Source: an uncultured Gammaproteobacteria bacterium (GTDB lineage Bacteria > Patescibacteriota > Microgenomatia > Levybacterales > GWA1-39-11). From it: a stretch of DNA of 59,491 bases. This document shows, piece after piece, positions 1,182 through 22,919 of the stretch. Below the pieces are notes generated by a model. It was given only the letters and a program-made list of their open reading frames with translations, did not search any database and was not told the DNA's origin. Both the position numbers and the translations under genes were made by a program. Each line of letters starts with the position of its first letter. The first letter of the stretch is position 1. The stretch is taken from assembly GCA_964627245.1 (NCBI GenBank), contig CAZVGS010000007.1:1-59491 (forward strand). The letters run 5' to 3'.

Positions 1182-3406
1182 AAAAGTTAAAAAAACATTC
1201 AGCAGTTATTGTTCTTATTTTTTTTATTTGTATATTCTATTCGCCATTCCTGCTCTATTCAAAAGTTCCTATTCCATCCGATACTATCGTAGGACTCTAC
1301 AGTCCATATAGAGATTTCTACTCGAAAGACTATCCTAACGGAATACCATTCAAAAACTTTTTGATAACTGACCCGGTTAGGCAAACATATGTATGGAAGG
1401 AGTTGGCAGTAAGCCTTTACAAAAAGGCACAAATTCCTTCATGGAATCCATACGAAATGACAGGTAAGCCATTGGCCGGCAACTTTCAGTCGGGTGCGTT
1501 TTATCCTCTAAACATAATTCTTCTTTTTGGCAGATTTGATTTTTTCTGGTCTCTTTTTATCATCTCCCAAACACTTCTTTTTTCTCTATTCACCTATTTT
1601 TACTTAAGGAGTTTGAAAATTAGTGGATCCTCATCACTCCTCGGATCAACAGCAGCTGCTTTTAGCGGATTTAGCATAAGCTGGTTGGAATGGGGAAACG
1701 TATTGCATACCGTATTGTGGCTTCCTCTAATTCTGCTTTCAATAGATAAGCTTGTATCAAAAGGTGGCAATCGAAATTATATAGTTATCTTAAGTATATC
1801 CGTTATTTCATCAATGCTTGCGGGGCACCTGCAGTTTTTTTTCTACGTTATTCTTACTGCAATAGCTTATTTCATTTTAAGATGGTTTGAGAATGGAAAA
1901 AAGGGCATGAATATCCTGAAACTCCTGGGAGTTCTTTCAATATCTTTTTTAGTCGGGTCTGTACAGTTACTGCCCGCCTTGCAGTTTATTTCTCATTCTG
2001 CAAGAAGTATTGACCAAAACTTTCAGGACATTTCCGGCTGGTTTATTCCTTGGCAGAATTTAATTCAATTCGTTGCCCCTGATTTTTTTGGGAATCCTGC
2101 TACTCTTAACTACTTTGGGGAATGGAATTATGCTGAGTTTGTTGGGTACATAGGAATTGCTTCTTTGTGCTTTGTATTTTATTCTTTTCTAAAAAGAAGC
2201 TCGACCGTTGTATTTTTTGGCGCTGTAAGTGTATCGAGTTTGTTATTTGCGCTTCCTACCGGTATTTCAAGCATTCCATATGTATTAAATATTCCTCTTC
2301 TTTCAAGCGCTCAGCCTACGAGATTGATTTTCTTGGTATCTTTTTCCATGATTATTCTTTCATCTATTGGATTTGAGTATTTTGTTCATAGCAAACAAAA
2401 ATTATCTTTCAAAAATGTTTTTCCTGTCCTTTTAGTAGGAGTTATTTTCATGGCATTATGGATAATATCGCAATTTGGAACGGTTCTTTTTAAGGACCCA
2501 GGCGAAGCATCTATTGCAAAAAGAAATCTGATCTTTCCAAGTATAATATTTTCAGCATGCTTGGCTGGAATTTTACTGCTTTTAAATGTTAACAAAGATA
2601 GGGTAAGAAAAGCTGTATTTATTTTACTAATTTTTATTTCTTTTTTTGATTTGCTTCGTTTCTCACAAAAATTTACTCCTTTTTCTGAAGCTTCATATCT
2701 TTATCCTCAGACAAAGATAATAAATTTTTTGCAGTCTCGGGATGGAGTTTTTAGAATAGCATCACTTGACAGGCGTATTCTTGCACCCAATTTCTCAACT
2801 CATTACAAACTGCAGTCAATTGAAGGGTATGATCCTTTATACTTAAAATCTTACGCTGAGTTTATTGTTTCGCTTGAGAGAGGGAATGGGGATCTAAGTC
2901 AGCCGTACGGCTTTAACCGGATTATTACACCCCATAATTACAACTCTGTACTTTTCGATTTCTTGAATGTTAAATACGTTCTTGCGTATGAGAATTTACC
3001 TTCTGATAAATTTAGGTTTATTTATGAAGAAGGCGCGACTAAGGTATATGAGAATAAAAGTTATTTTGAAAGGGCATTTTTTGTAGAAAATATTGTTGTG
3101 CCAAACAGCATGGAAAAGCTATTTAACGTAGATCTTCATAAAACGGCCGTTGTTGACGGTTTTTACGGAGGATCAGAGTTTTCAAAGGGAGAAGCAACCA
3201 TAATAAGCTATAGTGAAAATGAAATTATAATTAAAACCAAAAATAATGGCGACGGGTTTTTAGTTATTTCAGACGCATACTACCCGACATGGAAAGCACG
3301 AATAGACGGTGTTGCAGCTGAAATACACAAAACAAATCATGCATTTAGAGGAATTGCTATTCCCAAAGGAGAGCACGTAGTTATAATGCAAAACAGCTTA
3401 TTGTAA
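1175..3406 (+). CDS. YfhO-like polytopic membrane protein (GT-C-type glycosyltransferase candidate)
   Basis: 743 aa. The ATG overlaps the upstream stop (ATGGTAG). Many hydrophobic helices span the first ~520 aa. A soluble C-terminal domain ends ISDAYYPTWKARIDGVAAEI...GIAIPKGEHVV, typical of the YfhO family. Confidence 0.65.
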   Translation: MVEKLKKHSAVIVLIFFICIFYSPFLLYSKVPIPSDTIVGLYSPYRDFYSKDYPNGIPFKNFLITDPVRQTYVWKELAVSLYKKAQIPSWNPYEMTGKPLAGNFQSGAFYPLNIILLFGRFDFFWSLFIISQTLLFSLFTYFYLRSLKISGSSSLLGSTAAAFSGFSISWLEWGNVLHTVLWLPLILLSIDKLVSKGGNRNYIVILSISVISSMLAGHLQFFFYVILTAIAYFILRWFENGKKGMNILKLLGVLSISFLVGSVQLLPALQFISHSARSIDQNFQDISGWFIPWQNLIQFVAPDFFGNPATLNYFGEWNYAEFVGYIGIASLCFVFYSFLKRSSTVVFFGAVSVSSLLFALPTGISSIPYVLNIPLLSSAQPTRLIFLVSFSMIILSSIGFEYFVHSKQKLSFKNVFPVLLVGVIFMALWIISQFGTVLFKDPGEASIAKRNLIFPSIIFSACLAGILLLLNVNKDRVRKAVFILLIFISFFDLLRFSQKFTPFSEASYLYPQTKIINFLQSRDGVFRIASLDRRILAPNFSTHYKLQSIEGYDPLYLKSYAEFIVSLERGNGDLSQPYGFNRIITPHNYNSVLFDFLNVKYVLAYENLPSDKFRFIYEEGATKVYENKSYFERAFFVENIVVPNSMEKLFNVDLHKTAVVDGFYGGSEFSKGEATIISYSENEIIIKTKNNGDGFLVISDAYYPTWKARIDGVAAEIHKTNHAFRGIAIPKGEHVVIMQNSLL

Positions 3407-3407
3407 T

Positions 3408-4340
3408 ATGAAAATTGATATTATTATTCCAAACTACAACGGCTCTCATCTTATTGAGAATAACTTATCAAAAGTTATTCTGGCGCATAATAACTTTGAT
3501 GGCAGAATCATATTAGTTGACGATGGGTCACAAAAAGAAGAAAAAATACAACTAAGGAATCTTGTCAGAAAAATTAATTCCCCTAAATTAACCCTAATTG
3601 AACACTCAAAGAATAAAGGTTTTTCCTCGGCAATAAATACAGGTGTCAATGAATCAAACGCAGAATTTGTTGTTCTGCTGAATTCGGATGTAGTTCCAGC
3701 CGCTAATTTCTTGGGAGTACTGGTCGAAAAAATGAAGAGAGACGATTTGTTATTCGGTCTGGGGTGTCTTGACGAAAGTGTAGAAAAGGAAAGAGTTGTA
3801 ATGCGGGGAAGGGGATTGGGTTTTTGGAAAAAAGGAATGCTTTTGCACAAAAAAGGAGACGTTGGGTCAGATGATACCTTCTGGATATCCGGGGGGAGCT
3901 GTATTCTAAGGAGGGCAATTTTTGTTAAGCTCAATGGAATGGATGAGCTTTTCAACCCTTTTTACTGGGAAGACATAGACCTTTCATATAGAGCTAGAAA
4001 AGCAGGATACCATATTGGATTTTGCAAAGAGTCGGTTGTCAGGCACTATCACGAAGAAGGGGCGATAAAAACAGGTTTTACAAGTTCTAAGATAACTAAA
4101 ATTGCATACAGAAATCAATTCATTTTTGTTTGGAAGAACATAACATCTCTTCATTTGTTGGCAAATCATATTCTTTTTTTGCCGGTAAACATTGTTAACG
4201 CAATCAAAGGCGGTGATAGCGCTTTTATTTACGGCTTTATTCTTGCCGTGTTAAAGTTACCTGCTATAATAAAAAAAAGAAAGATTCAAAGAGATTTTTA
4301 TAAGGTAGAGGATATAGAGCTTTTAAATCAAATTTCATGA
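3408..4340 (+). CDS. Glycosyltransferase family 2 (rhamnosyltransferase-like subgroup)
   Basis: Motifs IIIPNYNGSHLI, VDDGS, LLNSDV and FYWEDIDLSYRARKAGY indicate a GT-A fold GT2. Confidence 0.85.
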   Translation: MKIDIIIPNYNGSHLIENNLSKVILAHNNFDGRIILVDDGSQKEEKIQLRNLVRKINSPKLTLIEHSKNKGFSSAINTGVNESNAEFVVLLNSDVVPAANFLGVLVEKMKRDDLLFGLGCLDESVEKERVVMRGRGLGFWKKGMLLHKKGDVGSDDTFWISGGSCILRRAIFVKLNGMDELFNPFYWEDIDLSYRARKAGYHIGFCKESVVRHYHEEGAIKTGFTSSKITKIAYRNQFIFVWKNITSLHLLANHILFLPVNIVNAIKGGDSAFIYGFILAVLKLPAIIKKRKIQRDFYKVEDIELLNQIS

Positions 4341-5068
4341 ATTTATCCAAAAAGACATTATCAATAGTTATCCCCGTTTATAATGAGGAAAAAACAATTG
4401 GGTTTGTTCTGGATCAATTGGAGAAAGTTAATTTTACTGGAGTGACTAAGGAAATTGTGGTCGTGAACGACGGGTCAAGCGACAATTCGGTTAAGATCAT
4501 ACAAGAACGGAAGAATAAAATTTCAGGTTTAAGATTTTTTGATCATAAAATAAATCAAGGGAAGGGGGCAGCTGTTCAGACGGGTCTAAAAAATGCTAAG
4601 GGTGATATATTGATGATCCAGGATGCTGATCTTGAGTACGACCCTAACGATATTCCAAGGCTTCTCAAGCCAATACTGGACAGGCATGCAGATATTGTTT
4701 ATGGAACAAGGCTTAGGCGGATGCCAAACCTCAAAAAAGAGGAAAAAAGTATACGCTTTTTACTTCATTATCTGGGTAACAGGTGGTTGAGCTTGGTTAC
4801 CACAATACTTTACGGGAGTGTTGTAACCGATATGGAGACATGCTACAAACTTTTTACAAAAGAAGCGTTCAAGGGAATTAAATTAAAATCAAGAGGATTT
4901 GATTTGGAACCCGAGATAACCGCTAAATTCTTAAAGAAGGGATTAAAAATTATGGAACTGGATATTGTTACTAAACCACGGGGGTATGATGAAGGAAAAA
5001 AACTCAATACTTTTAGAGACGGATTTAAGGCAATCTGGACGCTATTAAAGTATAGATTTAGTTCATGA
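4337..5068 (+). CDS. GT2, Dpm1/GtrB/ArnC-type polyprenyl-phosphate sugar synthase
   Basis: 243 aa, ATGA-coupled. Motifs: LSIVIPVYNEEKTI, VVVNDGSSDNS, NQGKGAAVQTGL, IQDADLEYDP, DMETCYKLF. No TM segment seen. Confidence 0.7.
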   Translation: MNLSKKTLSIVIPVYNEEKTIGFVLDQLEKVNFTGVTKEIVVVNDGSSDNSVKIIQERKNKISGLRFFDHKINQGKGAAVQTGLKNAKGDILMIQDADLEYDPNDIPRLLKPILDRHADIVYGTRLRRMPNLKKEEKSIRFLLHYLGNRWLSLVTTILYGSVVTDMETCYKLFTKEAFKGIKLKSRGFDLEPEITAKFLKKGLKIMELDIVTKPRGYDEGKKLNTFRDGFKAIWTLLKYRFSS

Positions 5069-6312
5069 CAAATACCAGATTTTCAGTTTCAAGTATAGTA
5101 CTGCCGGCACTTATTGTGCCGATAATAATGACCTACCAGATATTTCCTGGTGATACGAATTACATTCAATTTGGTCTAATATTTCTTGCACTTTTTTTCA
5201 ATTTTTTTCTTGATGCATTTAGTATTTCTGATAAAAAATATTACCTTTTTAAGTATTTCTTGTTTTGGTCTGTTTTGCTACTAGCTGTAGGGGGTGCATT
5301 TGTTTCAACAGTTATCGTAAGACATAATGTTGCACCGGTATTTCAAATTCACGATATTATCCTTCAGCTAGAAGCGGCAATACGGTTTTTTCTTGATGGT
5401 ATAAATCCTTGGGCTGCAACTTACCACAATACGCTAATGGCTAGCTGGCATTACAGTGACACCATGGTTAATCCGGCATTGTACCATTTTGTAATGATGC
5501 CCTTTTACCTTCTTTTCTCACTACCTTTTTATTATTTATCTAATCATTCTATAGGTTATTTCGATGGAAGAATTCCGCTTTTTATATTGTATTTTATTAT
5601 GTGTATCTCAACTTTTGTATTTACAAAAAAACCGGAAAATAAATTGCTCTTCACTTCTTTACTAGCGCTAAATCCTGCAATGTTTTCCTATACACTGGAG
5701 GGGAGAAGCGATGTTTATATGTTCGCTTTTTTGATTTTAGGGTTTATTACGCTTACAAAAAAAATGTATGGAATGTCTGGAGTCGTAATGGCACTTGCCT
5801 TCACAGTAAAGCAATCTGTTTGGCCCTTGCTGCCATTGTATGTTGCATACGTTTACTTTAAGTCCAGGAATGTAAAGTTGACCTTAATGAGGATAAGTTC
5901 TTTCTTTATTGTTACACTATTATTAACGTTGCCTTTTTTCCTTTGGGACCCAATATCATTTCTCAACAGTACGGTTTTCTATCTCTCGGGCAATACCGAG
6001 CATAGCTATCCGATATCAGGTTACGGGCTTGGTGTGCTGCTGCATCAGCTTGGAATAATCAAGGATCTGATATCACCTTACCCTTTTGTTTTTTGGCAGA
6101 TAGTAATTGTCATACCCCTCATGGTTTTTCTAATCAAGTACTTAAAACGGAATCAAAATGTTAGAACTCTAATCTTTACTTATGGAATTTTGCTTTTTGT
6201 TTTTTGGTATTTATCCCGATACTTCAATAACAGCCACGTAGGTTATTTAACCATGGTTTTTACAACAGCATATTTTTGGCCAGAAAGTGAAAAAGAAAAA
6301 AGTAAAAAATAA
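5065..6312 (+). CDS. Polytopic membrane protein, DUF2029/GT87 (PimE-like) GT-C candidate
   Basis: 415 aa, about 10 hydrophobic helices. The first-loop motif HDIILQLEAAIRFFLDGINPW and FTVKQSVWPLLPL resemble the GT87 family. Assignment is by eye only. Confidence 0.45.
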   Translation: MTNTRFSVSSIVLPALIVPIIMTYQIFPGDTNYIQFGLIFLALFFNFFLDAFSISDKKYYLFKYFLFWSVLLLAVGGAFVSTVIVRHNVAPVFQIHDIILQLEAAIRFFLDGINPWAATYHNTLMASWHYSDTMVNPALYHFVMMPFYLLFSLPFYYLSNHSIGYFDGRIPLFILYFIMCISTFVFTKKPENKLLFTSLLALNPAMFSYTLEGRSDVYMFAFLILGFITLTKKMYGMSGVVMALAFTVKQSVWPLLPLYVAYVYFKSRNVKLTLMRISSFFIVTLLLTLPFFLWDPISFLNSTVFYLSGNTEHSYPISGYGLGVLLHQLGIIKDLISPYPFVFWQIVIVIPLMVFLIKYLKRNQNVRTLIFTYGILLFVFWYLSRYFNNSHVGYLTMVFTTAYFWPESEKEKSKK

Positions 6313-7813
6313 AGATCGATTTTTGGAGAGTATTCTTAAGAAGAGTAGAGTCTTTCTGAAGGATAACGTAATGCTCCTCACGATTTTGATACTCTCTTTT
6401 TTTCTGCGGTTTGTTAACTACTCTAACAGGTGGGGTATCGCGTACGACCAAGCAAGAGATGCCATAGTAGTAAATGAGGCAATTGAAAGGTTTGTTTTGC
6501 CATTGATCGGTCCATTTTCAGCTTCGGGTCCTTTTGTTTTTGGCCCGCAATGGTACTGGATAAATATTCTTGTTGTTTTTGTATCTCCTCAATGGATGCT
6601 CGTCCCCTGGTTTTTTCAGGGGGCGGTTTCTTCGCTATTACCTATAATTGCATTTATGGCAGGTAGGCAAATTGCAGGTAAGGGCTTTGGATTATTATTT
6701 GCTTTATTTACAGCGATTTCACCAGCTGTCATAGCCCAATCAACAAATCTTACCTATTCAACGATGGTTGGATTTGTTTGCTTTCTTCTGTTTTTAACTG
6801 TCGTGCGGTATTGGTACAAACCGAGTGATAAAAAACTATTTATAATTTCGTTTCTGGTTGGTTTGTCAATCAACATACACTTTCAAGCTATAGGAACCCT
6901 CGCATTAATCCCATTGATAATCCTTTTTAAGGGATTGTCATTTAGAAAAATTCTGATTTCCGTTCTAGGTCTGGCAGTGCCATTTACACCGATTATTATA
7001 TTTGATTTTATTTCTGATCACTTTCAGACCCGAAATTTAGTTGACTATTTTTTCCTTAACCGGGGAGTTTCCGGACTTCCAAAGAGATGGCTAACATTTG
7101 GTCTTGAGACGATACCAAATATATGGGCCCATATTATTGGGGGGAATATTTTTGCTGCATATTTTGTAGGAATAGGATTAGCTATATTAGGGTTATTCTT
7201 TTCCTTCAAGCGAAAGATGCAAGGCATAGTAGTATTCTTCATGCTTTATTTAGGTGTAAATATAGTAGCTCTGAGATACTTTAAGGGAGGATTGTTTGAC
7301 GCTTTTTTTACCTATCTTCATCCGGTTGTAATTTTTCTATCTGCATGGATGTTATTCCAATTGTTGAAATTGCACAGAAAGGGGGGAATAATCCTTCTTA
7401 TTGCGTTAACTTTTACAACGTTATATAAGACATATGTTGAGATAGTCAATAGTACCAATCTTAAAGCCTCTGCAACTGAGAAGTATGTTGAAGAGCTGAT
7501 AAGGAAATACCCTGGAACAAAATTTGCAGTTTATGATCATAAGTACAAGTATGGTCATGATTCTTTAACTTTGGTTTTGTACTTGAATTCAGAGGGTTTA
7601 CTGAAAAATGACGGGCATAGGATAGGCGTAGTTGTATCTACTTCGAGTGCAATAATGCCTGTCGTGCACTTCAAGCCCATATATGGGAACATAAGGAGTT
7701 TACAGATTTATGACTTGAATTCCTCTTCATCGGCCGAACTTGAGAGTGCTGAGTGGGCTCCTGTTAACCCGTCATACATATATGAGTCTACAGTAGAATG
7801 GTATAAAAAATAG
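6287..7813 (+). CDS. Polytopic GT-C-like membrane protein (subfamily X of the tandem array)
   Basis: 508 aa from GTG 6287; TTG 6323 or ATG 6371 are alternative starts. First external loop WGIAYDQARDAIVVNEAI...GPQWYW. Paralogous to the genes at 11127 and 12640. Confidence 0.55.
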   Translation: MKKKKVKNKDRFLESILKKSRVFLKDNVMLLTILILSFFLRFVNYSNRWGIAYDQARDAIVVNEAIERFVLPLIGPFSASGPFVFGPQWYWINILVVFVSPQWMLVPWFFQGAVSSLLPIIAFMAGRQIAGKGFGLLFALFTAISPAVIAQSTNLTYSTMVGFVCFLLFLTVVRYWYKPSDKKLFIISFLVGLSINIHFQAIGTLALIPLIILFKGLSFRKILISVLGLAVPFTPIIIFDFISDHFQTRNLVDYFFLNRGVSGLPKRWLTFGLETIPNIWAHIIGGNIFAAYFVGIGLAILGLFFSFKRKMQGIVVFFMLYLGVNIVALRYFKGGLFDAFFTYLHPVVIFLSAWMLFQLLKLHRKGGIILLIALTFTTLYKTYVEIVNSTNLKASATEKYVEELIRKYPGTKFAVYDHKYKYGHDSLTLVLYLNSEGLLKNDGHRIGVVVSTSSAIMPVVHFKPIYGNIRSLQIYDLNSSSSAELESAEWAPVNPSYIYESTVEWYKK

Positions 7814-7823
7814 CATATTTATG

Positions 7824-7829
7824 TATAAT
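7824..7829 (+). promoter_or_regulatory. TATAAT -10 box in the 33-nt gap upstream of the gene at 7847
   Basis: atgTATAATt read directly, 17 nt before ATG 7847. No convincing -35. Confidence 0.3.
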
Positions 7830-7846
7830 TTAATAGCAAACAATAC

Positions 7847-9454
7847 ATGTATAAAGCACGATATTATCTTTTGGCAATATTGTTGATTGCCGGGGTTCTT
7901 AGATTTTTTCAAATAGGAAGTATCCCTCCTTCCCTTACTTGGGATGAAGTCTCCTGGGGCTATAATGCTTACGTATTAGGTATTGATGGCAAAGATGAGT
8001 TTGGAAAATTTTTACCTCTTTCTTATCTTGAATCATTTGGCGACTTCAAGCCACCGCTTTATGCTTATCTTGATATTATTCCGGTAAAAATATTTGGATT
8101 AACTGAATTCGCTACCCGTTTTCCATCAGCATTCTTTGGAACAGCAGCCGTTCTACTAACATATTTTACTGTAAAGGAAATATTTGGTACTAAAAGGGAA
8201 GGATTGGCATTGCTGTCTTCTCTGATATTGGCAATTTCCCCTTGGCACATAATGCTTTCAAGAGCTGCATTTGAAGCTAACGTTGCTCAGTTTTTTATTT
8301 TATTGGGAATTTTGACTTTTCTTCTGAGTGTTCGCTCAAACAAACTCTTTCTCTTATTATCTTCAATTTCATTTGTAGCTTCAATGTATACGTTCAATAG
8401 TGCGAGGATAGTAGCACCTATTTTGGTAATTGTGCTTTTATTCTCATTCTGGAAGACGCTGATTAAATATCCAAAAACGGTTATATCTTCCGGCTTATTA
8501 GGTGTTATTTTATTCCTGCCTCTTTTGCTTTTCATAAATACTCCTCAAGCAAAGCTTAGATTTAATGAAGTAAATATATTTTCAGATATAAAAGTTATTG
8601 AGAGAATAAATCAGCAAGTTGAAAATGACAGTAGTTCTATTCTTTCAAAAACCGTTCACAACAGAAGGTTTGCTTATGGAGTCGAATATTTGAGACATTA
8701 TTTTGACAACTTTAATCCCGCATTTCTATTTATAAAGGGGGACGGAAATCCAAAATTTTCCATACAAGATGTTGGCCAATTATATTTGTGGGAAATACCC
8801 TTTTTTATAGCAGGCATTCTTATACTATTTAGAAAGAGGGAAGGGTATTGGTGGATTGTTCCTGTGGTTATATTTGTCGGGATTTTGCCGGCAGGTTTTG
8901 CGCGCGAAACTCCACACGCTTTAAGAATTGAAAATGCTTTGCCTATGTTTCAGATAATTACCGCATTGGGCGTGATTTATTTGGTTGGTAAACTAAAAAA
9001 ATACAGAAAATTTGCGGTAGGTTTGATTTCTTTCTTAATACTTCTTAATTTTACTTATTTTATTCATAATTACCTTACGCATTATTCAAGAGAATTTTCA
9101 GGAGAATGGCAGTATGGGTATAAAGAATCAATTGATTTCGCTTCAAAGAATTCTGGGAGTTACGATAAGATATATGTAACTACAGCACTTGGAAGGCCAT
9201 ATATATACTACCTTTTTTACCTAAAATATGATCCTAAGACTTTCAGAAGTGAAGCAGATATTTACCGTGAGCCTCTTGGATTTGTCCACGTAAATTCTTT
9301 TTCAAATTTCGAGTTTGCTGATGATCTAGGAGAGATTAATGAACCCCACTCATTATACATTGCCTTACCCCGTGAAATTCCTGACAACGCAGAAATTGTT
9401 AAAGAATTCAAGCTTCTAAATGGTGAAATTCAGCTAGTTGCTTACACATTATGA
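7847..9454 (+). CDS. PMT_2/GT39-ArnT-like GT-C glycosyltransferase (subfamily A)
   Basis: 535 aa. Motifs: PPSLTWDEVSWGYNAY..GKDEFGKFLPL..FGDFKPPLYAYL, RFPSAFFG, ISPWHIMLSR, NRRFAY, ETPHALR. C-terminal domain YGYKESI...YIYYLFYLKYDP. Confidence 0.75.
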   Translation: MYKARYYLLAILLIAGVLRFFQIGSIPPSLTWDEVSWGYNAYVLGIDGKDEFGKFLPLSYLESFGDFKPPLYAYLDIIPVKIFGLTEFATRFPSAFFGTAAVLLTYFTVKEIFGTKREGLALLSSLILAISPWHIMLSRAAFEANVAQFFILLGILTFLLSVRSNKLFLLLSSISFVASMYTFNSARIVAPILVIVLLFSFWKTLIKYPKTVISSGLLGVILFLPLLLFINTPQAKLRFNEVNIFSDIKVIERINQQVENDSSSILSKTVHNRRFAYGVEYLRHYFDNFNPAFLFIKGDGNPKFSIQDVGQLYLWEIPFFIAGILILFRKREGYWWIVPVVIFVGILPAGFARETPHALRIENALPMFQIITALGVIYLVGKLKKYRKFAVGLISFLILLNFTYFIHNYLTHYSREFSGEWQYGYKESIDFASKNSGSYDKIYVTTALGRPYIYYLFYLKYDPKTFRSEADIYREPLGFVHVNSFSNFEFADDLGEINEPHSLYIALPREIPDNAEIVKEFKLLNGEIQLVAYTL

Positions 9455-11130
9455 AAATACTGCTAAAACCTACAATTTTACTGGCCGTTATTATATGTGT
9501 TGGGTTTTTTTTGAGAGGATATCAATTAGGTCTTGTCCCCCAAAGCCTTAACTGGGACGAAGTTTCATTGGGATACAATGCTTACTCAATTCTTAATACG
9601 GGAAAAGATGAATATGGTGAATTTATGCCTTTAGTATTAAGGTCATTTGATGATTACAAGCCGGCTCTTTACACATATCTTGTTATTCCATTCGTAGCTT
9701 TGTTAGGTTTGACTGAGCAGGCAGTTAGGCTACCTTCGGCAATTGCGGGAACCTTAGCCGTTGGACTTATTTATTTCCTGGTATTGGAATTATTGGGGAG
9801 TAAAAAAATCAATATTTTTGGAAGAGAGATAAAGTCAATACATATAGCTCTTCTTGCCTCATTTTTCTTGGCAATTTCTCCATGGCATATCCAGTTTTCA
9901 AGGATAGCCTACGAGTCAAACGTAGGGTTGACTATAAATATAGCGGTTTTTCTGACTTTTCTTAAAGGTCTTAAGAAACCGATTTATTTACCTCTTTCAT
10001 TCCTTCTTGCCTCCTTAAATATTCATATGTATCAAAGCGACCGTGTTTTTTCCCCATTATTGGTGGTTGTGTTATGCATAATTTTTTACAAGAAGATTTT
10101 GAAAATTAAAAAGTGGTTTGTTGTTTCTTTTTTTATTGCATTTTTGGTTTCACTGCCTCTTATTATTTTTATTGCAACAAACAACGACGCGCTGCTTAGG
10201 GCGAGGGGAGTTAGCGTTTTCTCAGAACAAAGTTTGGTTAAACGCTCGTCGTCTAAGCTACTATACGATACTGAAAGCAACAACATTTTGGGGAAAATAT
10301 TTGATAACAGAAGAGTCGAATTTATAAAAGCAAGTGTCGATGGCTACACTTCGCATTTTGACTTAAATTGGCTGTTTATAACAGGTGATCTTGCAAGGCA
10401 CCACGCGCCGAATATGGGCTTATTGCATCTATTTACACTGCCGTTTCTTCTAATAGGGATTTACGTTATGGTATTTCTTAACCTAGAACTGACTAAAAAA
10501 CTTTCTTTTTTTTCCTACTTTCTACTTGTGCCTATCCCGGCTTCCATTACAAGCGGTGTACCTCATGCAGTCAGAACATTAAATTTTGAATGGACCTTTG
10601 AGTTTTTTATTGCGTTAGGTTTGGTCGGTTTTGCAGTTCTAATACTTAAAATAAAAAAGAGCATTTTCAAGTCTGTCATTTATCTTGGGGTTATTATTTA
10701 TTTTGTTCTTTCTTTGGTGAACATCTCGTACTATATTAATCAATACTTTGTTCAGCTTAATTATTTCAATGCAAGGGATTGGCTGTACGGCTATAAGGAA
10801 GCCATTGCCTACGTCTCGGCTAGAAGCTCCGATTATGATTGGGTCGTTGTTGAAAATGAAGTACCATTCGACCAATCCTATATGTTTTTTCTATTTTACT
10901 TAAAGGTTGATCCAGCGTATTATCAAAGTCTTGGAGGTACAAAAAGCGGAGGCTTTAAGGAGCAGCACAAAGGATTTTATAACTACACCTTTGAGCCGGT
11001 AGCAAAAACAGAAAAAACAGGCAAGGTTCTTTTAATGGGTGCTCCGAATGATATACCGGCCGGACTAATGGATAGCAAAGTCATCAGCTATCCGAATGGC
11101 GAACCTGCAATAGTAATTTCGGAAAAATGA
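9451..11130 (+). CDS. PMT_2/GT39-ArnT-like GT-C glycosyltransferase (subfamily A paralogue)
   Basis: 559 aa, ATGA-coupled. Motifs: PQSLNWDEVSLGYNAYSILNTGKDEYGEFMPL..FDDYKPALYTYL, RLPSAIAG, ISPWHIQFSR, DNRRVEF, GVPHAVR, YGYKEAI...YMFFLFYLKVDP. Confidence 0.75.
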   Translation: MKILLKPTILLAVIICVGFFLRGYQLGLVPQSLNWDEVSLGYNAYSILNTGKDEYGEFMPLVLRSFDDYKPALYTYLVIPFVALLGLTEQAVRLPSAIAGTLAVGLIYFLVLELLGSKKINIFGREIKSIHIALLASFFLAISPWHIQFSRIAYESNVGLTINIAVFLTFLKGLKKPIYLPLSFLLASLNIHMYQSDRVFSPLLVVVLCIIFYKKILKIKKWFVVSFFIAFLVSLPLIIFIATNNDALLRARGVSVFSEQSLVKRSSSKLLYDTESNNILGKIFDNRRVEFIKASVDGYTSHFDLNWLFITGDLARHHAPNMGLLHLFTLPFLLIGIYVMVFLNLELTKKLSFFSYFLLVPIPASITSGVPHAVRTLNFEWTFEFFIALGLVGFAVLILKIKKSIFKSVIYLGVIIYFVLSLVNISYYINQYFVQLNYFNARDWLYGYKEAIAYVSARSSDYDWVVVENEVPFDQSYMFFLFYLKVDPAYYQSLGGTKSGGFKEQHKGFYNYTFEPVAKTEKTGKVLLMGAPNDIPAGLMDSKVISYPNGEPAIVISEK

Positions 11131-12647
11131 TTCCAAAAAACATTATTAAAAAAGGAGTTCTACTGTCTTTAATTATTCTTATCGTGATTGGTGTTTTGGC
11201 AAGATCGGTGGAAGTTATAAGCGGAAACTTTTTGTGGGGCTTTGATCATGGTAGAGAATACCTCATGACTCAAGAAATAGTTGATGATAAAAATTTCAGA
11301 CTTATAGGAGCACCATTAGGGGGAGGATCAGCCGGCATAAATGGAATATTCCACGGCCCAGGATATTTCTACTTTTTGGCGATTCCATTTATTATTTTCA
11401 ATGGTGATCCATATGGAGGAATTGTTATGATGTATTCTTTTGGAATTGGTACAGTTTTACTTTCGTTTTGGCTTGCAAAGCGTTTGTTTGGAAATAACTT
11501 TGCATTACTTTTAACCGCACTAATTTCTTTATCTCCCCCGTTAATATCGCAATCACGAGCAATTTGGAGTCCATTCCCCTCTACTTTTTTTATAGTACTG
11601 TCATTCATTTTTGTCTACCTTCTTACTAATAAAAAGAAAGGGAAATTAAAATTTGTATTATTTGCTTCATTTTTTTCAGCTTTTATATACAATTTCGAAC
11701 TGGCAATCGCGGTGCCTATGGTTATAAGTCTATTCTTATACCTTGCTTTTTTATTCAAAAGAAACCTAAAGCCATATTTTGTTGCATCTGCAGGATTGAT
11801 TCTCGCGCTGTCGCCAATGATACTTTTCGAAATAAGACATAAATTTATGGCTATTAATGGATTTATTTCCTATATTACCTCGCCAATAAAACCAAACGGT
11901 CCTACATTTATCGAAAACGCAGTTGATCATTGGGGGTCATTTCTTTTTGTGTTTAGCAACTCTATTCCAGCTCAAGGATTGCTTCCGGGATTAATATTGC
12001 TCACAGTTTTTGCCGCTATGTGGATTTTTGTATTGAGAAGCGAAAAAGATGCAAATCTTAAGAACTTTATATTTTATTTGACATCATTGCCATTCGTTTC
12101 TTTCACCGTATTTTTATTATTAAAAAATACGGTTTATGAATACTATTTATATCACTTGACCGTTGTATATATTTTTGTTTTTGTATACATAATATCAAGG
12201 TTCAAAAAATTGAACATGAGATTTGTTTTTTATACTTTGGTACTATTTATTACAGCCTGTTTTGTGGTCACCGTTCCCAAGTACCTAAGCATGATAAGGT
12301 ACGACTTATACGACTATGGGGGTGACGCCAAAATAAAAGGCAAAAAAGACGCTTTGGATTTTATCTATAGCGATGCCAAAGGAGAGCCTTTTAATCTGCT
12401 TATATTCACCCCCCCTGTGTATACGTATCCATATGATTATTTAATTTCGTGGTATGCCGAAAAAAAGTATGGCTATAAACCCGGTAATGAAAAAGAGGGG
12501 GTTTTCTATCTTTTGATCCAGGTCGATTCGTACAAACCTTGGAGTTACGAAGGTTGGCTGGAAACGGTTATTAAAAGTGGGGAAGTAATTTTTGAAAAGA
12601 AGCTTCCCAGCGGTTTTATAGTACAAAAAAGGATTAGCAATGAGTAA
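11127..12647 (+). CDS. Polytopic GT-C-like membrane protein (subfamily X)
   Basis: 506 aa, ATGA-coupled. Loop motif NFLWGFDHGREYLMTQEIVDDKNFRLIGAP...GPGYFYF aligns with the genes at 6287 and 12640. Confidence 0.5.
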   Translation: MIPKNIIKKGVLLSLIILIVIGVLARSVEVISGNFLWGFDHGREYLMTQEIVDDKNFRLIGAPLGGGSAGINGIFHGPGYFYFLAIPFIIFNGDPYGGIVMMYSFGIGTVLLSFWLAKRLFGNNFALLLTALISLSPPLISQSRAIWSPFPSTFFIVLSFIFVYLLTNKKKGKLKFVLFASFFSAFIYNFELAIAVPMVISLFLYLAFLFKRNLKPYFVASAGLILALSPMILFEIRHKFMAINGFISYITSPIKPNGPTFIENAVDHWGSFLFVFSNSIPAQGLLPGLILLTVFAAMWIFVLRSEKDANLKNFIFYLTSLPFVSFTVFLLLKNTVYEYYLYHLTVVYIFVFVYIISRFKKLNMRFVFYTLVLFITACFVVTVPKYLSMIRYDLYDYGGDAKIKGKKDALDFIYSDAKGEPFNLLIFTPPVYTYPYDYLISWYAEKKYGYKPGNEKEGVFYLLIQVDSYKPWSYEGWLETVIKSGEVIFEKKLPSGFIVQKRISNE

Positions 12648-13914
12648 ATTTAGAACCTTTATAAAAAAGACATTCAGCGGGAAATGGACATTGCCTATAT
12701 TTATTCTCATTCTAGTCTTTTTTGTTTTTACAAGATTTTCATTTATCGAAACTAAAACCAGCTTCGGATGGGATCAAGTAGATAACGCGTGGATGGCCAA
12801 GAACATTATTGATGATCATAATTACCCGACTGTTGGAATGCAGGCTAAAGGGAATACCGGTTTTTATATTGGTCCTTACTATTACTATTTAATAACTCCT
12901 TTTTATCTTTTAACAAATCTTGATCCTATAGCTTCGGGCGTTATTGCAGGTATTACTGCACTGTTGAACTTTTTCCTTATATATTTATTAGTAAGAAAAA
13001 TTTTGAATGAACATGTAGCTTTAATTGCAGTCTTCATAAACACTTTTTCTTTTTTTGTTCTTGCTTCGGAAAGAACTCAATGGCCGGTAAATTTTATTGC
13101 ACCTGTGTCGCTTATAATCTTCTTCAGCTTGTTCAAGACTATTATTGGTAATAGCAAGTATATCTTGTTGCTTGTAGCTGCAATAGGCTTTTCGCTGCAC
13201 ATACATTTCACCTCAATATTCTATTTTTTGATTGTCATATTATCTATTCCCCTAATGAGAAAATCCAAAAACAAGCTTAGGTACATTTTATTGTCAATCC
13301 CAATAGCTGTTTTTTTTGTTTTTCCAATTGCTTATTCAACCCTGACTCTCCAAAAAGGAAATGCAGTAAGCTATCTCGAATCAAGTTATATCGGAATACA
13401 TCTTAGGAGATTTTCGCAAGTTTTCTTTGATGGAATGATTGAATTTCAAGAAATTATTGGATTGGGAATAATGAGATATTTAGGAATTATTTTTTTTGCC
13501 TGGTATTTGTTCCTCCTCTACAGAGATAAATTTGTAAAGGAGCGTCACAGTATTTTTTTCTTGAGCATAATTTGGATAGTGGTTCCATGGTTTGCTTTTT
13601 CAACTTATGGAGGCGAGATAAGCAACTATTACTTTTCCATGACAAGGCCAGTTGTGCTAATAGTTTTTTCATACTTAATATATAGATTGTTCTGTTTTAG
13701 GGAGAAAATTTTCTTAATATTACCAATTATTGCGGGAGTAATTTTTGTTTACAATGGGTTGGGTTCATTTATTAAAAAAGAGAATCTGGGTATAAGTTAC
13801 TATAGAAACTTAGTAAAGAATAAAATAAAAGTTGCAGATAAAGTCGAGTATTCCCAGGGCGATCCGGAATCCTATTTTTACTATGTATATAAAGAACGTT
13901 TTGATAGAAAATAA
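12640..13914 (+). CDS. Polytopic GT-C-like membrane protein (subfamily X)
   Basis: 424 aa. Loop motif SFGWDQVDNAWMAKNIIDDHNYPTVGMQ...GPYYYYL. Hydrophobic throughout, with no large soluble domain. Confidence 0.5.
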   Translation: MSKFRTFIKKTFSGKWTLPIFILILVFFVFTRFSFIETKTSFGWDQVDNAWMAKNIIDDHNYPTVGMQAKGNTGFYIGPYYYYLITPFYLLTNLDPIASGVIAGITALLNFFLIYLLVRKILNEHVALIAVFINTFSFFVLASERTQWPVNFIAPVSLIIFFSLFKTIIGNSKYILLLVAAIGFSLHIHFTSIFYFLIVILSIPLMRKSKNKLRYILLSIPIAVFFVFPIAYSTLTLQKGNAVSYLESSYIGIHLRRFSQVFFDGMIEFQEIIGLGIMRYLGIIFFAWYLFLLYRDKFVKERHSIFFLSIIWIVVPWFAFSTYGGEISNYYFSMTRPVVLIVFSYLIYRLFCFREKIFLILPIIAGVIFVYNGLGSFIKKENLGISYYRNLVKNKIKVADKVEYSQGDPESYFYYVYKERFDRK

Positions 13915-15529
13915 AAAGATTTTTCTGCTATTTTTTTTGATAATTTTAATAGCCTCATTACTTAGGTTATATAATCTTGACTCTATTCCTCCGCATCCGT
14001 CTCTTGACGAGGTATCAACCGGATATAATGCTTATTCAATATTAAAAACGGGAGGAGATGAATATGGGAATAAGACACCGGTGCTCCTAAGGGCGTATGA
14101 TGATTATAGGCCCGCACACTATGCTTACCTCGTAACACCCTTTGTAAATATTTTTGGGTTAAACGTATTTTCAGTCAGATTCCCGTCGGCAATTTTATCT
14201 CTAGCAACTATTGTTTTTTCTTATTTTCTTGCAGTTAATATATTTGAAAAATCCAAGAACAAATATTTATTTGGCTTGCTGGTAATGTTTCTTCTGTCAA
14301 TTTCTCCATGGCACATATATATATCAAGACTTGGACACGAGGTAAATCTTTTTTACACGACATTTATAATTGGAGCCACCTTAGCTCTAAGTTATCTTAG
14401 AAATGAAAGATTTTACATTTTAATTGCAGCCGCAGTCATGTTGGGAATATCTTTTTCTTCATATCAAACAGGAAAGATTTTTATCCCATTGTTCATTACA
14501 ATTTTTGGAGCACTTTTTATAAAGGAGTTTTTTACAAAAAAAATAAAAACGTTTATAGCAGTAGTGTTATTCCTGCTTGTGTCTTTGCCAATTTTACAGG
14601 CGAGCTTTAGTCCTCAAGCACTCGTAAGATTTGAGGCAACGAACATCTATACGTCTATTGAGGAACCCTTGAAAATTAGTGCTCAAAAAGTGCTTGAAGC
14701 AAAGGAGAATAATGATCTGATTGGACAGATTGTCAATAACAGAAGATTTGTTTACCTTTTTCTTCCTTTTAACGCATACCTTTCTCACTTCAACCCTTTT
14801 TGGCTTGCCTCAAATGGCGGTGATGAACCATTCAAAGTTCCGGGCAGCGGGCTATTATATGTGATGGAAATACCCTTGATACTTATGGGAGCTGCATTTT
14901 TATTTTTCTCAAAGAAAATTGATACAAGAGCAAAAATATTGCTGTTGGGATGGTTGTTGATTTCAATTATTCCTGGAGCTATAACAAATGGTTATCCCCA
15001 TGCAATGAGAACGATGCAAATTCTCCCTCTTCCGCAGCTGTTGATTGCTTTAGGGGTTTTTAGTCTTCTTAATTCTAGGAAAAACAGAATGGTGATTGCA
15101 TCAATTCTTGCAGTTTTCTATTTGATTTCAATATCAATTTTTATTCAGGGATATTTCTACCTATTCCAACGAAATATAGCCTGGCAATTTCAGTATGGAA
15201 TTCAAGATGCATTTTTTTACGCTAAGTCTGTTGAGGACAAATATCCTAAGATATTTGTTGAAAACAATAAAAATTTATTCCAAAGTTATATGTTTTATCT
15301 TTATTTCAATCAGTATGATCCCGAAAAGTATCAAGAAGCAGGAGGAACTATCTCGGGAGGATATGCCCAAACTCACCAGATTGGCAAATACCTTTTTGGA
15401 CCCGTACCTGATAAATCCGGTTCGAAATCTCTTTTTATCCTAAATCCTGACAGTAGGAGCTCAGGCAATGTTATGAAGTGGTTTTACTTTCCCGATGGAA
15501 AGCCTGCTTTGAAGATAATTGAAGAATAA
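13883..15529 (+). CDS. PMT_2/GT39-ArnT-like GT-C glycosyltransferase (subfamily A paralogue)
   Basis: The ORF opens at 13832, but ATG 13883 (MYIKNVL...) gives the usual short N-terminus before TM1. Motifs: PPHPSLDEVSTGYNAYSILKTGGDEYGNKTPV..YDDYRPAHYAYL, RFPSAILS, ISPWHIYISR, NNRRFVY, GYPHAMR, YMFYLYFNQYDP. Confidence 0.75.
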   Translation: MYIKNVLIENKKIFLLFFLIILIASLLRLYNLDSIPPHPSLDEVSTGYNAYSILKTGGDEYGNKTPVLLRAYDDYRPAHYAYLVTPFVNIFGLNVFSVRFPSAILSLATIVFSYFLAVNIFEKSKNKYLFGLLVMFLLSISPWHIYISRLGHEVNLFYTTFIIGATLALSYLRNERFYILIAAAVMLGISFSSYQTGKIFIPLFITIFGALFIKEFFTKKIKTFIAVVLFLLVSLPILQASFSPQALVRFEATNIYTSIEEPLKISAQKVLEAKENNDLIGQIVNNRRFVYLFLPFNAYLSHFNPFWLASNGGDEPFKVPGSGLLYVMEIPLILMGAAFLFFSKKIDTRAKILLLGWLLISIIPGAITNGYPHAMRTMQILPLPQLLIALGVFSLLNSRKNRMVIASILAVFYLISISIFIQGYFYLFQRNIAWQFQYGIQDAFFYAKSVEDKYPKIFVENNKNLFQSYMFYLYFNQYDPEKYQEAGGTISGGYAQTHQIGKYLFGPVPDKSGSKSLFILNPDSRSSGNVMKWFYFPDGKPALKIIEE

Positions 15530-15549: not shown

Positions 15550-16323
15550 ATGTTAAAACTCACAGTGGTTCTGGCAACATTTAATGAGGAAAAAAACTTG
15601 CCTGGCTGTTTGAATTCTGTCAAAAATCTGGCTGATGAAATAGTTATTGTAGATGGAACATCTAGCGATAAAACAGTCGCAATTGCCAAAAAATACGGGG
15701 CAAAAGTTACTGTAACGAATAATCCTCCGAATTTCCATATCAACAAGCAGAAAGCGATAAATAAAGCTAGGGGGGCATGGATACTTCAACTTGATGCTGA
15801 TGAAAGAGTATCCGAAGAGTTGAGTAAAGAAATAAAATCGAAGTTGGACGTTGAACAATCAGAAAATGGCTATTGGATGCCAAGGAAAAACTATTTTCTA
15901 GGACGATTTTTGATGAAAGGCGGACAATACCCTGATTATACAGTTAGACTTTACAAGAATGGTATGGGGAGACTTCCGCAAAAAGATGTACATGAACAGG
16001 CGGTGATTGAGGGAAAGATAGGATATCTCAAGCACCCTTTGCTTCACTATCCTTACGAAAACTTTTCAGCCTATTTTGCCAAGTGGATGCGGTATAATCG
16101 TTTATTTGCCGGTCAAATTCATGAGGAAATGATGAAAAAAAACTTACTATATAAAATTTATTTCGGGCTTGGTTATTTGCTCGCAAAGCCGGCACACTGG
16201 ATGCTGACATCGTACGGACGGCACAAAGGATTTATGGATGGATGGCAAGGATTTGTTTTTTCACTTTTTTCTGCTCTTCGTTTTCCGGTGTCTTATATAA
16301 TATACTTAAAGTTAAAGAAATAA
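15550..16323 (+). CDS. Glycosyltransferase family 2
   Basis: 257 aa. Motifs: LTVVLATFNEEKNL, IVIVDGTSSDKT, LQLDADERV. Confidence 0.85.
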   Translation: MLKLTVVLATFNEEKNLPGCLNSVKNLADEIVIVDGTSSDKTVAIAKKYGAKVTVTNNPPNFHINKQKAINKARGAWILQLDADERVSEELSKEIKSKLDVEQSENGYWMPRKNYFLGRFLMKGGQYPDYTVRLYKNGMGRLPQKDVHEQAVIEGKIGYLKHPLLHYPYENFSAYFAKWMRYNRLFAGQIHEEMMKKNLLYKIYFGLGYLLAKPAHWMLTSYGRHKGFMDGWQGFVFSLFSALRFPVSYIIYLKLKK

Positions 16324-16325
16324 TT

Positions 16326-17315
16326 ATGGATACAAAGAAAAATATATTGGTTACAGGCGGCTGCGGATATATCGGAAGTTTTATGGTAAAAGCGCTTATA
16401 GAAGGGGGCTATAATCCAATTGTTTTGGATAATTTAGAAAGAGGTGCGCGTGATTCAATTCCTCAAAATACGGTATTTTATCAAGGCAATGTTTCTGATG
16501 GAGAACTTTTGTCAAAGATCAACGCTGAGAACAATTTTGGGGCTGTAATACATTTTGCAGGATACATTTCCATGAAGGAGTCTATGGATAATCCTGATCT
16601 TTACTTTGAAAAAAATACTCATGAAACGCAAAAATTGCTGTATAACCTGAAAAGTATTGGAGTGAGTAAAATTATATTTTCATCTACAGCGGGAGTGTAT
16701 GGAAATCCGGAAAGGGTTCCCATAAGTGAAAACGACAAAAAGGATCCTACAAACCCCTATGGTGAAAGCAAGCTAATGACTGAGAGGATGCTCCGGTGGT
16801 ACCAGGAAATTTATGGCATTGATTATGTTGTTTTGAGATATTTTAATGCATGCGGGGCTTCCTTGGATGGGTCAATGGGAGAGAGACACAATCCTGAAAC
16901 CCACATAATACCGGTAGCTTTAACCTCAATGCTGAATGGTAGAGAGTTTTCAATTTACGGTACTGACTATGATACACCCGATGGGACATGTGTAAGAGAC
17001 TACATTCATGTTATTGATCTGGCAAACGCTCACCTACTCGCTTTGCAAAAGATACTAAGTGAATCGGGAGGTTTTACTTATAATGTCGGTACAGGGCATG
17101 GTTATTCAAACCGTGAGGTCGTTGATATGATTCAGGAAGTAACCGAAAAAGAAGTTATTGTTAAGGAAATGGAAAGAAGGCCGGGAGATGCTGACGCGCT
17201 CGTTGCAGATGTATCGAAAATTAATGAAGAATTACACTTCGCTCCAAAATACTCGGATCTTAAATCTATTGTAGAATCTGCCTGGAAGTGGCATAGTAAA
17301 AATTCTTCTTCCTAA
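16326..17315 (+). CDS. galE: UDP-glucose 4-epimerase
   Basis: The ORF opens at 16242, but ATG 16326 (MDTKKNILVTGGCGYIGS) is the sensible start. Motifs: GxxGxxG, STAGVYG, PYGESK (YxxxK), RYFNACGA, GTDYDTPDGTCVRDYIHVIDLA. Confidence 0.9.
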   Translation: MDTKKNILVTGGCGYIGSFMVKALIEGGYNPIVLDNLERGARDSIPQNTVFYQGNVSDGELLSKINAENNFGAVIHFAGYISMKESMDNPDLYFEKNTHETQKLLYNLKSIGVSKIIFSSTAGVYGNPERVPISENDKKDPTNPYGESKLMTERMLRWYQEIYGIDYVVLRYFNACGASLDGSMGERHNPETHIIPVALTSMLNGREFSIYGTDYDTPDGTCVRDYIHVIDLANAHLLALQKILSESGGFTYNVGTGHGYSNREVVDMIQEVTEKEVIVKEMERRPGDADALVADVSKINEELHFAPKYSDLKSIVESAWKWHSKNSSS

Positions 17316-22907: not shown

Positions 22908-22919
22908 TTGCAGGGTGTT

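Follow-up and report, generated by a model that had tools for sequence, protein, structure and literature searches.

Contig CAZVGS010000007.1 (GenBank assembly GCA_964627245.1), deposited under the name of an uncultured Gammaproteobacteria bacterium and placed by GTDB in the Levybacterales (Patescibacteriota; Microgenomatia), is 59,491 nucleotides (nt) long. We analyzed this whole stretch, hereafter the window, and focused on an array of six consecutive genes at 6287-15529 that are predicted to encode polytopic glycosyltransferases of the C class (GT-C). The array comprises X1 (6287-7813; 508 amino acids, aa), A1 (7847-9454; 535 aa), A2 (9451-11130; 559 aa), X2 (11127-12647; 506 aa), X3 (12640-13914; 424 aa) and A3 (13883-15529; 548 aa from the ATG at 13883), all on the plus strand, with A and X denoting two interleaved subfamilies. 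X1 ends in an alpha/beta domain, and X3 is without the C-terminal soluble domain. The open reading frames (ORFs) named in a first-pass annotation are real: they are co-directional and mostly overlapping, and genes called independently on the identical Logan contig have the same models and starts, including that of A3. X1 and A1 are 33 nt apart, and the following genes overlap by 4 nt (A1/A2 and A2/X2), 8 nt (X2/X3) and 32 nt (X3/A3), with 20 nt between A3 and a GT2 gene at 15550. At the A1/A2 junction, the A2 start codon overlaps the A1 stop codon (ATGA). Overlaps and gaps this short (≤33 nt) favor an operon, and the genes form an operon-like run; a promoter/terminator scan gave counts no different from chance (67 where 69.5 were expected and 12 where 13.2 were, respectively) and was uninformative on transcription units.

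The first-pass annotation had counted six consecutive GT-C genes. The six hold, and the run extends further on its left side, where a polytopic, GT87-like protein of 415 aa is encoded at 5065-6312 (plus strand) and overlaps X1 by 26 nt, making it the seventh consecutive polytopic gene. The window copy of this gene has no Pfam match. Its orthologues matched Pfam GT87 (PF09594) in 12 cases out of 19 at the threshold used (E ≤ 1; best E 1.1e-10), and the family is weakly linked to the A-family profile (hhalign E 1.8e-5).

Several lines of evidence show that all six proteins are GT-C enzymes of the ArnT/PMT (PMT_2) clan. A1 scored above threshold with two Pfam families, PMT (PF02366; E 8e-12, 45.7 bits against a cut-off of 22.7) and PMT_2 (1.4e-11), while A3 (3.3e-9) and X3 (30 bits) passed PMT_2 and the PMT_2 matches of A2 and X2 fell below threshold. 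No PF02366 match at E ≤ 0.01 was found in A2, A3, X1, X2 or X3. We modeled A1 and X1 with AlphaFold2 (pLDDT 87.4 and pTM 0.87 for A1; 92.0 and 0.90 for X1); A2, A3, X2 and X3 are tied to these models by sequence and profile homology. When the models were compared with the PDB using Foldseek, the top ~30 significant matches of each were all GT-C proteins (AglB, PglB, STT3, ArnT, Pmt1/2/4, ALG9/12, AftA/B/D and EmbA-C), headed for A1 by AglB, ArnT, STT3 and Pmt4 and including PglB at 6.6e-8 for X1. ArnT gave the best overall superposition, with TM-scores of 0.53 for A1 and 0.64/0.61 for X1. A transporter or other membrane protein can be ruled out for both models, the matches to major facilitator superfamily and solute carrier proteins reaching only a probability <0.2 and a TM-score of ~0.1. 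The A1 sequence alone had no match among PDB sequences, and the A-family profile had a single sequence-level match, ArnT (5ezm; E 5.7e-4 over 165 residues), in which KPPLYAY falls on KPPFHMWV and the KPP is aligned with ArnT K85.

The first loop of these proteins carries the expected active-site signature. In GT-C enzymes, a DE motif in the loop between transmembrane helices (TM) 1 and 2 forms part of the active site, as in ArnT (D55/E56) and Pmt1 (D77/E78) (PMC7801869, PMC8698208); its first Asp is common to all GT-C active sites, and ArnT K85 contacts the phosphate of the carrier lipid (PMC7801869). The motif reads DE in A1 (D33-E34, nt 7943-7948), A2 (D36-E37, nt 9556-9561) and A3 (D42-E43, nt 14006-14011), DQ in X1 (D54-Q55, Asp at nt 6446-6448) and X3 (D45-Q46, Asp at nt 12772-12774), and DH in X2 (D40-H41, Asp at nt 11244-11246). 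The Asp is invariant in both family alignments (41 sequences for A, 46 for X), X1 D54 aligns with A1 D33 in the A-X profile alignment, and both models place the residue at the N terminus of the first loop helix. Thus the acidic residue that the first-pass annotation had pointed to in the first loop, including the one in its X-specific motif, is conserved and shared by the two subfamilies. The loop following TM1 is 51-92 residues long in the six proteins, and we place it outside the cell because the N-terminal tails before TM1 are basic in all six, most extremely in X1 (MKKKKVKNKDR...), and because of the GT-C fold. A whole-protein positive-inside tally favored a cytoplasmic N terminus for five of the proteins, not A3. 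Crude hydropathy gave an inconsistent 8-11 TM helices, was considered unreliable and was not used as evidence.

Relatedness to PMT raises the question of whether the A-type proteins are bacterial protein O-mannosyltransferases (Pmt-like, GT39), with different protein targets, secreted or at the surface (for example S-layer proteins, pilins or lipoproteins), for the individual paralogues. PMT is indeed the best Pfam family of A1, NCBI names homologues "glycosyltransferase family 39", and a soluble DPM1/AglJ-like GT2 is encoded upstream of the array, reminiscent of the actinobacterial pairing of Ppm1 with Pmt. The DE and (K/R)P motifs also parallel D113/E114 and H159 of the Streptomyces coelicolor Pmt (PMC8698208). 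On the other side, A1 is the only array protein to pass the PMT model, the sole sequence-level PDB match is ArnT rather than Pmt, Foldseek ranks oligosaccharyltransferases and ArnT above Pmt, and the surrounding island is of polysaccharide type (Wzx, Wzy-like, Bac_transf, RmlD and YfhO-like genes), which argues mildly against a protein acceptor. Moreover, to our knowledge, the bacteria known to O-mannosylate proteins require one Pmt, not 6-9. We consider this explanation rather unlikely but a serious rival where the A family is concerned.

A1, A2 and A3 are clear paralogues. Full-length BLASTP identities are 35% for A1/A2 (E 7e-84), 34% for A2/A3 (2e-87) and 31% for A1/A3 (2e-64), and the three-way alignment has 95 invariant columns, far beyond chance, so that the kinship and collinearity first proposed for subfamily A are well founded. 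Most of the motifs originally listed for it occur in all three proteins (RxPSA, ISPWHI..SR, NRR, PHAxR, which reads PHALR in A1, and Y(I/M)(Y/F)(Y/F)L...DP). Three others are not in every copy: A3 has YGIQD in place of YGYKE and PPHPSLDEVS in place of PPSL(T/N)WDEVS, and A1 has GDFKPP in place of DD(F/Y)KP. A distance (neighbor-joining, NJ) tree of 162 sequences, built without bootstrap support and for that reason treated as weaker evidence for grouping than the profile scores, recovered the A family as an exclusive clade (106/106), with A1 monophyletic and the A3 clade nested beside A2. Single-linkage clustering at 38-42% identity failed to split A1, A2 and A3; we used best-hit identity, which is bimodal, together with the NJ tree instead. 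With a cut-off of E ≤ 1e-30 the A family takes in 2,772 clusters at 50% identity, and with E ≤ 1e-3 it takes in 12,454, which makes it a very large one; its named homologues, from Microgenomates, are annotated as GT39, ArnT-like or "phospholipid carrier-dependent glycosyltransferase".

Subfamily X is distinct from A, though loose. X1 and X3 are 20% identical (E 2e-5) and X2 and X3 23% identical over 166 aa (E 1e-7), BLASTP detected no similarity between X1 and X2, and the three proteins fell into separate orthologue clusters in a clustering of 582 polytopic ORFs, taken from the window and from 79 related loci. Profile comparison did bring them together. Within X, hhalign gave E 1.8e-39 for X1-X2, 6.6e-34 for X2-X3 and 5.6e-27 for X1-X3, and across the subfamilies it gave 1.3e-20 for A-X2, 5.7e-18 for A-X3 and 1.5e-14 for A-X1. 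X1, X2 and X3 also form an exclusive clade in the NJ tree (48/48), even though X-X identities of 17-18% are barely above X-A identities of 14-17%. The family of X3 has a median length of 428 aa. The profile comparisons and the tree together bear out the order X-A-A-X-X-A as first read from the sequence.

We further investigated how the array varies among relatives, as the first-pass annotation had suggested. The comparison set consisted of 79 related Microgenomates loci from GTDB species representatives (referred to by L numbers), in which ORFs were called and classified against the window. The closest homologues came from metagenome-assembled genomes (MAGs) named Candidatus Levybacteria or Levyibacteriota, and more distant ones from Roizman-, Gottesman- and Shapirobacteria, which marks the window as Microgenomates DNA. 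In 70 of 74 related loci the A1 orthologue has an A2-type gene after it, and the two often overlap by 4 nt. A1 orthologues are 51-66% identical across Levybacteria and 39-66% identical across the related loci. In the 44 complete arrays, defined as loci that show both ends of the polytopic run, the run is 2-9 genes long (median 6); A1 occurs in all 44, A2 in 39, X2 in 19, X3 in 15, X1 in 13, A3 in 11 and the GT87-like gene in 10. Relatives carry families beyond those of the window array, namely further A-type paralogues, a YfhO-like family (c2), families c8 and c10 (~655 aa), c11 and c12. These 44 arrays display 40 different gene orders, none of them that of the window, the nearest being GT87-like, c8, A1, A2, X2, X3, A3 in L005 and L049. 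A fixed six-gene operon is ruled out, since the window order is absent from all related loci. The left neighbor of the array is a GT2 of the 4337-5068 type in 24 of the 44 complete arrays, and the right neighbor a GT2 of the 15550-16323 type in 23. What emerges is a cassette of modules, variable in copy number, with A1-A2 as its conserved core.

The periphery also diverges faster than the core. Within one and the same genome, X genes have diverged much further than A1 and A2, X1 being at most 42% identical where A1 is ~65% identical; in L002, for instance, X1 is 35% identical, A1 65% and A2 64%. The idea of a tandem diversification holds as far as paralogy is concerned, and the event was not recent. 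Recent tandem duplication is ruled out by identities of at most 35% between the paralogues and by the separate orthologues of each; the paralogues are ancient, because each has its own orthologues across Microgenomates.

Two side observations concern these loci. In six of them (L003, L004, L013, L030, L042 and L046), an epimerase/dehydratase-like gene, 20-28% identical to the window gene at 16242-17315, separates the A3 orthologue from that of X3 (or A2); the X3/A3 junction of the window has no such gene. Many of the GTDB representative MAGs with a Levybacteria-type locus (L003-L005, L013-L017 and many others), which are third-party annotation assemblies, are titled "uncultured Gammaproteobacteria bacterium"; one homologue is labeled Cyanobacteria, and one locus carries the name Sulfotelmatobacter. 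Such record names are evidently placeholders or mis-binnings and are no guide to taxonomic distribution.

The array is embedded in a large glycan-synthesis island. The window (G+C ~35%, 99% coding) holds all its genes but one on the plus strand, and positions 117-54627 form ~55 kb of uninterrupted co-directional glycan-biosynthesis genes that end at RecO (54631) and a class II aminoacyl-tRNA synthetase (55206). Three plus-strand genes precede the GT87-like gene. The first encodes a YfhO-type GT-C of 743 aa (1175-3406; Pfam YfhO E 2.7e-29) and is a conserved left-hand member of the locus, with orthologues, 40-54% identical, upstream of the array in most related loci. The second (3408-4340; Glycos_transf_2 E 1.5e-20) encodes a GT2 with two C-terminal TM helices (residues 245-263 and 270-288 by hydropathy), the architecture of GtrB, CsbB and ArnC; it is conserved, with 40 related loci having it, and may be a membrane-bound polyprenyl-phosphate-sugar synthase. 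The third (4337-5068) encodes a soluble GT2 of 243 aa that resembles polyprenyl- and dolichyl-phosphate hexose synthases in NCBIfam, its best models being AglJ (124 bits against a cut-off of 325), PpgS, ArnC (PRK10714) and DPhHxTase (dolichyl-phosphate hexose transferase), and that we take as the putative donor synthase for the array. On the right, the array is closed by a GT2 of 257 aa with one C-terminal hydrophobic helix (15550-16323, plus strand; Glycos_transf_2 7e-20), the orthologues of which are up to 75% identical. A Wzx-type (Polysacc_synt) flippase is encoded at 18349-19620 on the plus strand (Polysacc_synt_3 1.1e-10) and is the sole flippase candidate in the window.

The remainder of 117-54627 encodes GT4 and GT2 enzymes, enzymes of sugar-nucleotide metabolism (RmlD-like, epimerases, a DegT aminotransferase and an NTP-transferase), methyltransferases, the Wzx-like flippase, a Wzy_C-like giant and an initiating Bac_transf. 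Further GT-C-like proteins are encoded at 20450-21787 and 45166-46641; both have PMT_2 matches, and their relatedness to the A profile has a probability of 97-98%. In all, the island holds at least 12 GT-C-type enzymes in ~55 kb, seven of them in one consecutive run, with at most two or three candidate synthases.

Other genes of the island are described here for completeness. A second GT2 and GT-C pair is formed on the plus strand by 19669-20439, which is weakly similar to the polyprenyl-phosphate-sugar synthases PpgS and ArnC, and the PMT_2 protein directly behind it at 20450-21787. Two paralogous GT2 genes at 22908-23951 and 25117-26157 (plus strand; 346-347 aa, each with two C-terminal TM helices in the GtrB/CsbB architecture) flank the DegT-type aminotransferase gene; their products are additional candidates for the synthesis of lipid-linked sugars, perhaps of an amino sugar. 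NCBIfam scans of the GT2 genes starting at 22908, 25117, 27790 and 15550 gave no specific assignment. Two large polytopic proteins at 30236-32542 (768 aa) and 34158-36128 (656 aa), both on the plus strand and without a Pfam family, are related by hhalign (94% and 97.5%) to the YfhO-like family c2, whose members are located within GT-C arrays in other Levybacteria. Between the two lies 32542-34161 (plus strand; 539 aa), in which about four N-terminal TM helices are fused to a C-terminal S-adenosylmethionine-dependent methyltransferase domain; this protein may be a membrane-anchored glycan methyltransferase, and its homologues (26-38% identical) lie within or beside GT-C arrays in L015, L017, L020, L024, L027, L031, L041, L043 and L044. 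The product of the only sizeable minus-strand gene, 37791-39323, is polytopic and 510 aa long, has no Pfam family and is related to family c11 of other arrays. Facing this gene is a 188-aa plus-strand ORF (37244-37810) that corresponds to the N-terminal half of a GT4 only; the two converge with an overlap of 20 nt, and a GT4 gene appears to have been truncated here by a local inversion or insertion. Finally, 41985-45179 (plus strand) encodes a giant of 1064 aa with more than 20 predicted TM helices. Residues 220-294 weakly match Wzy_C/O-antigen ligase and a second region (~624-756) weakly resembles the A-family core (hhalign 87%), so this protein may be a polymerase or ligase fused to a GT-C-like module.

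Taking these observations together, we propose, with a probability of about 80%, that the array and its GT87-like neighbor form a modular, polyprenyl-phosphate-sugar-dependent cassette for extracytoplasmic glycosylation. In this scheme, the GT2 encoded at 4337-5068, and perhaps also that at 3408-4340, would load single sugars onto polyprenyl phosphate, either in the cytoplasm or anchored at the membrane. The lipid-linked sugar would then be flipped across the membrane, a step for which the Wzx-like protein encoded at 18349-19620 is the only candidate in the window. At the outer face of the membrane, each GT-C would hand the sugar to a surface acceptor by means of the invariant loop-1 Asp, and in the A family a Lys/Arg-Pro motif, the equivalent of ArnT K85, would hold the carrier phosphate. 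It is this aligned motif, together with the adjacent GT2 resembling polyprenyl-phosphate-hexose synthases, that points to the putative use of a lipid-phosphate-linked donor. A1 and A2 would act as the conserved, translationally coupled core, and X1, X2, X3, A3 and the further families of relatives as exchangeable modules differing in donor, acceptor or linkage specificity. The cassette would thereby diversify one or more cell-envelope glycoconjugates of the Levybacteria cell, most likely with a cell-wall or lipid-anchored glycopolymer as the acceptor. A GT-A synthase, a flippase and a GT-C are the established components of extracytoplasmic wall-polymer decoration, and Wzx-type flippases serve donor flipping in some of these multi-component systems (PMC8035078).

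Several points weigh against this proposal. The enzymatic activity of every array member is a prediction from homology, and the sugar and the acceptor are ones that we purely infer. The NCBIfam scores of 4337-5068 are all far below the curated equivalog cut-offs, which weakens its assignment as donor synthase. A GtrA-type flippase is missing from the window, which is too densely coding to fit a gene of GtrA size, although another part of the genome may encode a flippase. X1 gave only a weak, sub-threshold TMEM260-like match in Pfam, and the X profile returned spurious matches only when compared with PDB sequences. Finally, the X family is without the Glu of the DE motif, and X1 and X3 are also without a basic residue before the Pro, so that their catalytic competence is less certain.

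This last point bears on whether some paralogues, above all those of the X type, are inactive and help active A-type enzymes by binding acceptors or as scaffolds, for example in hetero-oligomers of the Pmt1-Pmt2 kind. Besides the altered motif, which in X1 and X3 includes the loss of an equivalent of ArnT K85, the faster evolution of the X genes would fit such a role, and small GT-C enzymes have been speculated to need partner proteins for acceptor recognition (PMC8035078). Yet the X1 fold is complete and confidently predicted, the X genes vary in number and position without a fixed pairing with an A gene, and the first Asp is invariant in all X-type sequences; because of this last observation in particular, we consider inactive X proteins very unlikely.

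Another possibility is that the array is a stepwise extracytoplasmic assembly line for one lipoglycan or wall polymer, built from polyprenyl-phosphate-monosaccharides, with each paralogue adding a defined residue or linkage as the mycobacterial PimE, MptA-C, Emb and Aft do for lipomannan (LM) and lipoarabinomannan (LAM). GT87 is the family of the mycobacterial polyprenyl-phosphomannose-dependent mannosyltransferases, and a GT87-like member is among the seven consecutive GT-C genes here. The tight operon-like coupling, the conservation of A1-A2 and the Foldseek matches to AftB, AftD and Emb are likewise consistent with an assembly line. However, module content differs in nearly every genome, a better fit to optional decorations, and the island also encodes a complete cytoplasmic Wzx/Wzy-type pathway that might provide the backbone. 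An obligatory assembly line is a tentative possibility, to which we prefer optional decoration of a pre-made glycopolymer, in the wall or anchored in the membrane, because the periphery is variable and a Wzx/Wzy-type pathway lies in the same island. A more far-reaching version of this idea would have A1-A2 as an obligate, Microgenomates-specific, Pmt1-Pmt2-like heterodimeric GT-C core, the exchangeable modules as an extracytoplasmic line that builds a hypervariable LAM-like lipoglycan or wall polymer wholly from polyprenyl-phosphate-monosaccharides, and this polymer as what chiefly decides how these ultra-small, probably episymbiotic bacteria attach to host cells or evade phages, with cassette turnover driving host range. 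We regard this as speculative and distinctly improbable.

The value of the array lies mainly in the envelope biology of the candidate phyla radiation (CPR). Genomes of CPR/Patescibacteria are ~1 Mb in size, and the chemistry of their envelopes is little known. With ~1 Mb expected for this genome as well, the ~55 kb devoted to glycan synthesis take up a very large part of it. The conserved A1-A2 pair with its flanking GT2 genes and variable periphery offers a concrete handle on the surface diversity of Microgenomates, and we nominate A1-A2 as the first targets for biochemical characterization. Because the A family is large and without a characterized member, a single activity assignment would annotate thousands of proteins. 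In the literature on GT39, GT-C, PMT_2 or mannosyltransferases of CPR, Patescibacteria or Levybacteria, we found no description of such arrays.

Among known systems, ArnT (GT83; Cupriavidus metallidurans, PDB 5ezm/5f15) is the best structural match and resembles the array proteins in its size, its small C-terminal external alpha/beta domain and the D(E) in the TM1-TM2 loop, to which the A family adds the K-P-P aligned with K85. Unlike the array proteins, it is encoded by a single copy in the arn operon and acts on lipid A; identity is 9-12%, the X family is without the E, and X1 and X3 are without the K. No match to the NCBIfam ArnT model was found, and Pfam scans of the neighboring genes revealed no arnA-, arnD-, arnE- or arnF-type family. 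Without an arn context, and with lipid A unlikely in CPR bacteria, the array proteins do not qualify as ArnT proper.

The GT39 Pmt enzymes (yeast Pmt1-Pmt2, 6p25; Pmt4; actinobacterial Pmt) share with the array PMT/PMT_2 membership, the loop-1 DE and the (H/K)PP (PMC8698208), and the pairing of the paralogues Pmt1 and Pmt2 is a precedent for the conserved A1-A2 pair. They differ in that the array proteins are without a MIR domain, lie in a polysaccharide-type context and align structurally over their N-terminal half only (TM-score ~0.32 over ~270 columns). GT39 proper is not an assignment that we can make for the array proteins, since the PMT model is passed by A1 alone and their activity is a prediction.

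The mycobacterial and corynebacterial LM-LAM and arabinan sets (PimE and MptA-C of GT87; embC-embA-embB; AftA-D) likewise combine several GT-C enzymes, some encoded in tandem, that work outside the membrane with polyprenyl-phosphate-monosaccharide donors, and resemble the array in its GT87-like member and in its Foldseek matches to AftB, AftD and Emb. By comparison, the enzymes described here are much smaller, are without large carbohydrate-binding domains, belong to another phylum and come in highly variable combinations. We know of no lipoglycan from Microgenomates.

In genetic organization, there is a parallel with the multi-component systems of Gram-positive bacteria (CsbB/GtcA/YfhO, GtlA/GtlB, CsdAB/CD/EF and GacI/J/K/L), which also place a GT2 polyprenyl-phosphate-sugar synthase gene beside a GT-C gene (PMC8035078), include a YfhO-type member, vary in content between strains and species, and lie in rhamnose/Wzx-type wall-polysaccharide islands. 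By homology, 4337-5068 and 3408-4340, both conserved upstream of arrays, would supply the GT-A polyprenyl-phosphate-sugar synthase. Whereas those systems have one GT-C per GT-A and a few pairs per genome at most, seven consecutive GT-C genes are found here, with no GtrA flippase in the window. The locus fits the multi-component transmembrane glycosylation scheme except for the missing GtrA and the unusual ratio of GT-C enzymes to synthases. Its enzymes are ordinary members of the ArnT/PMT clan that are already annotated automatically, and it is their number and modular arrangement that stand out, as noteworthy rather than categorically new.

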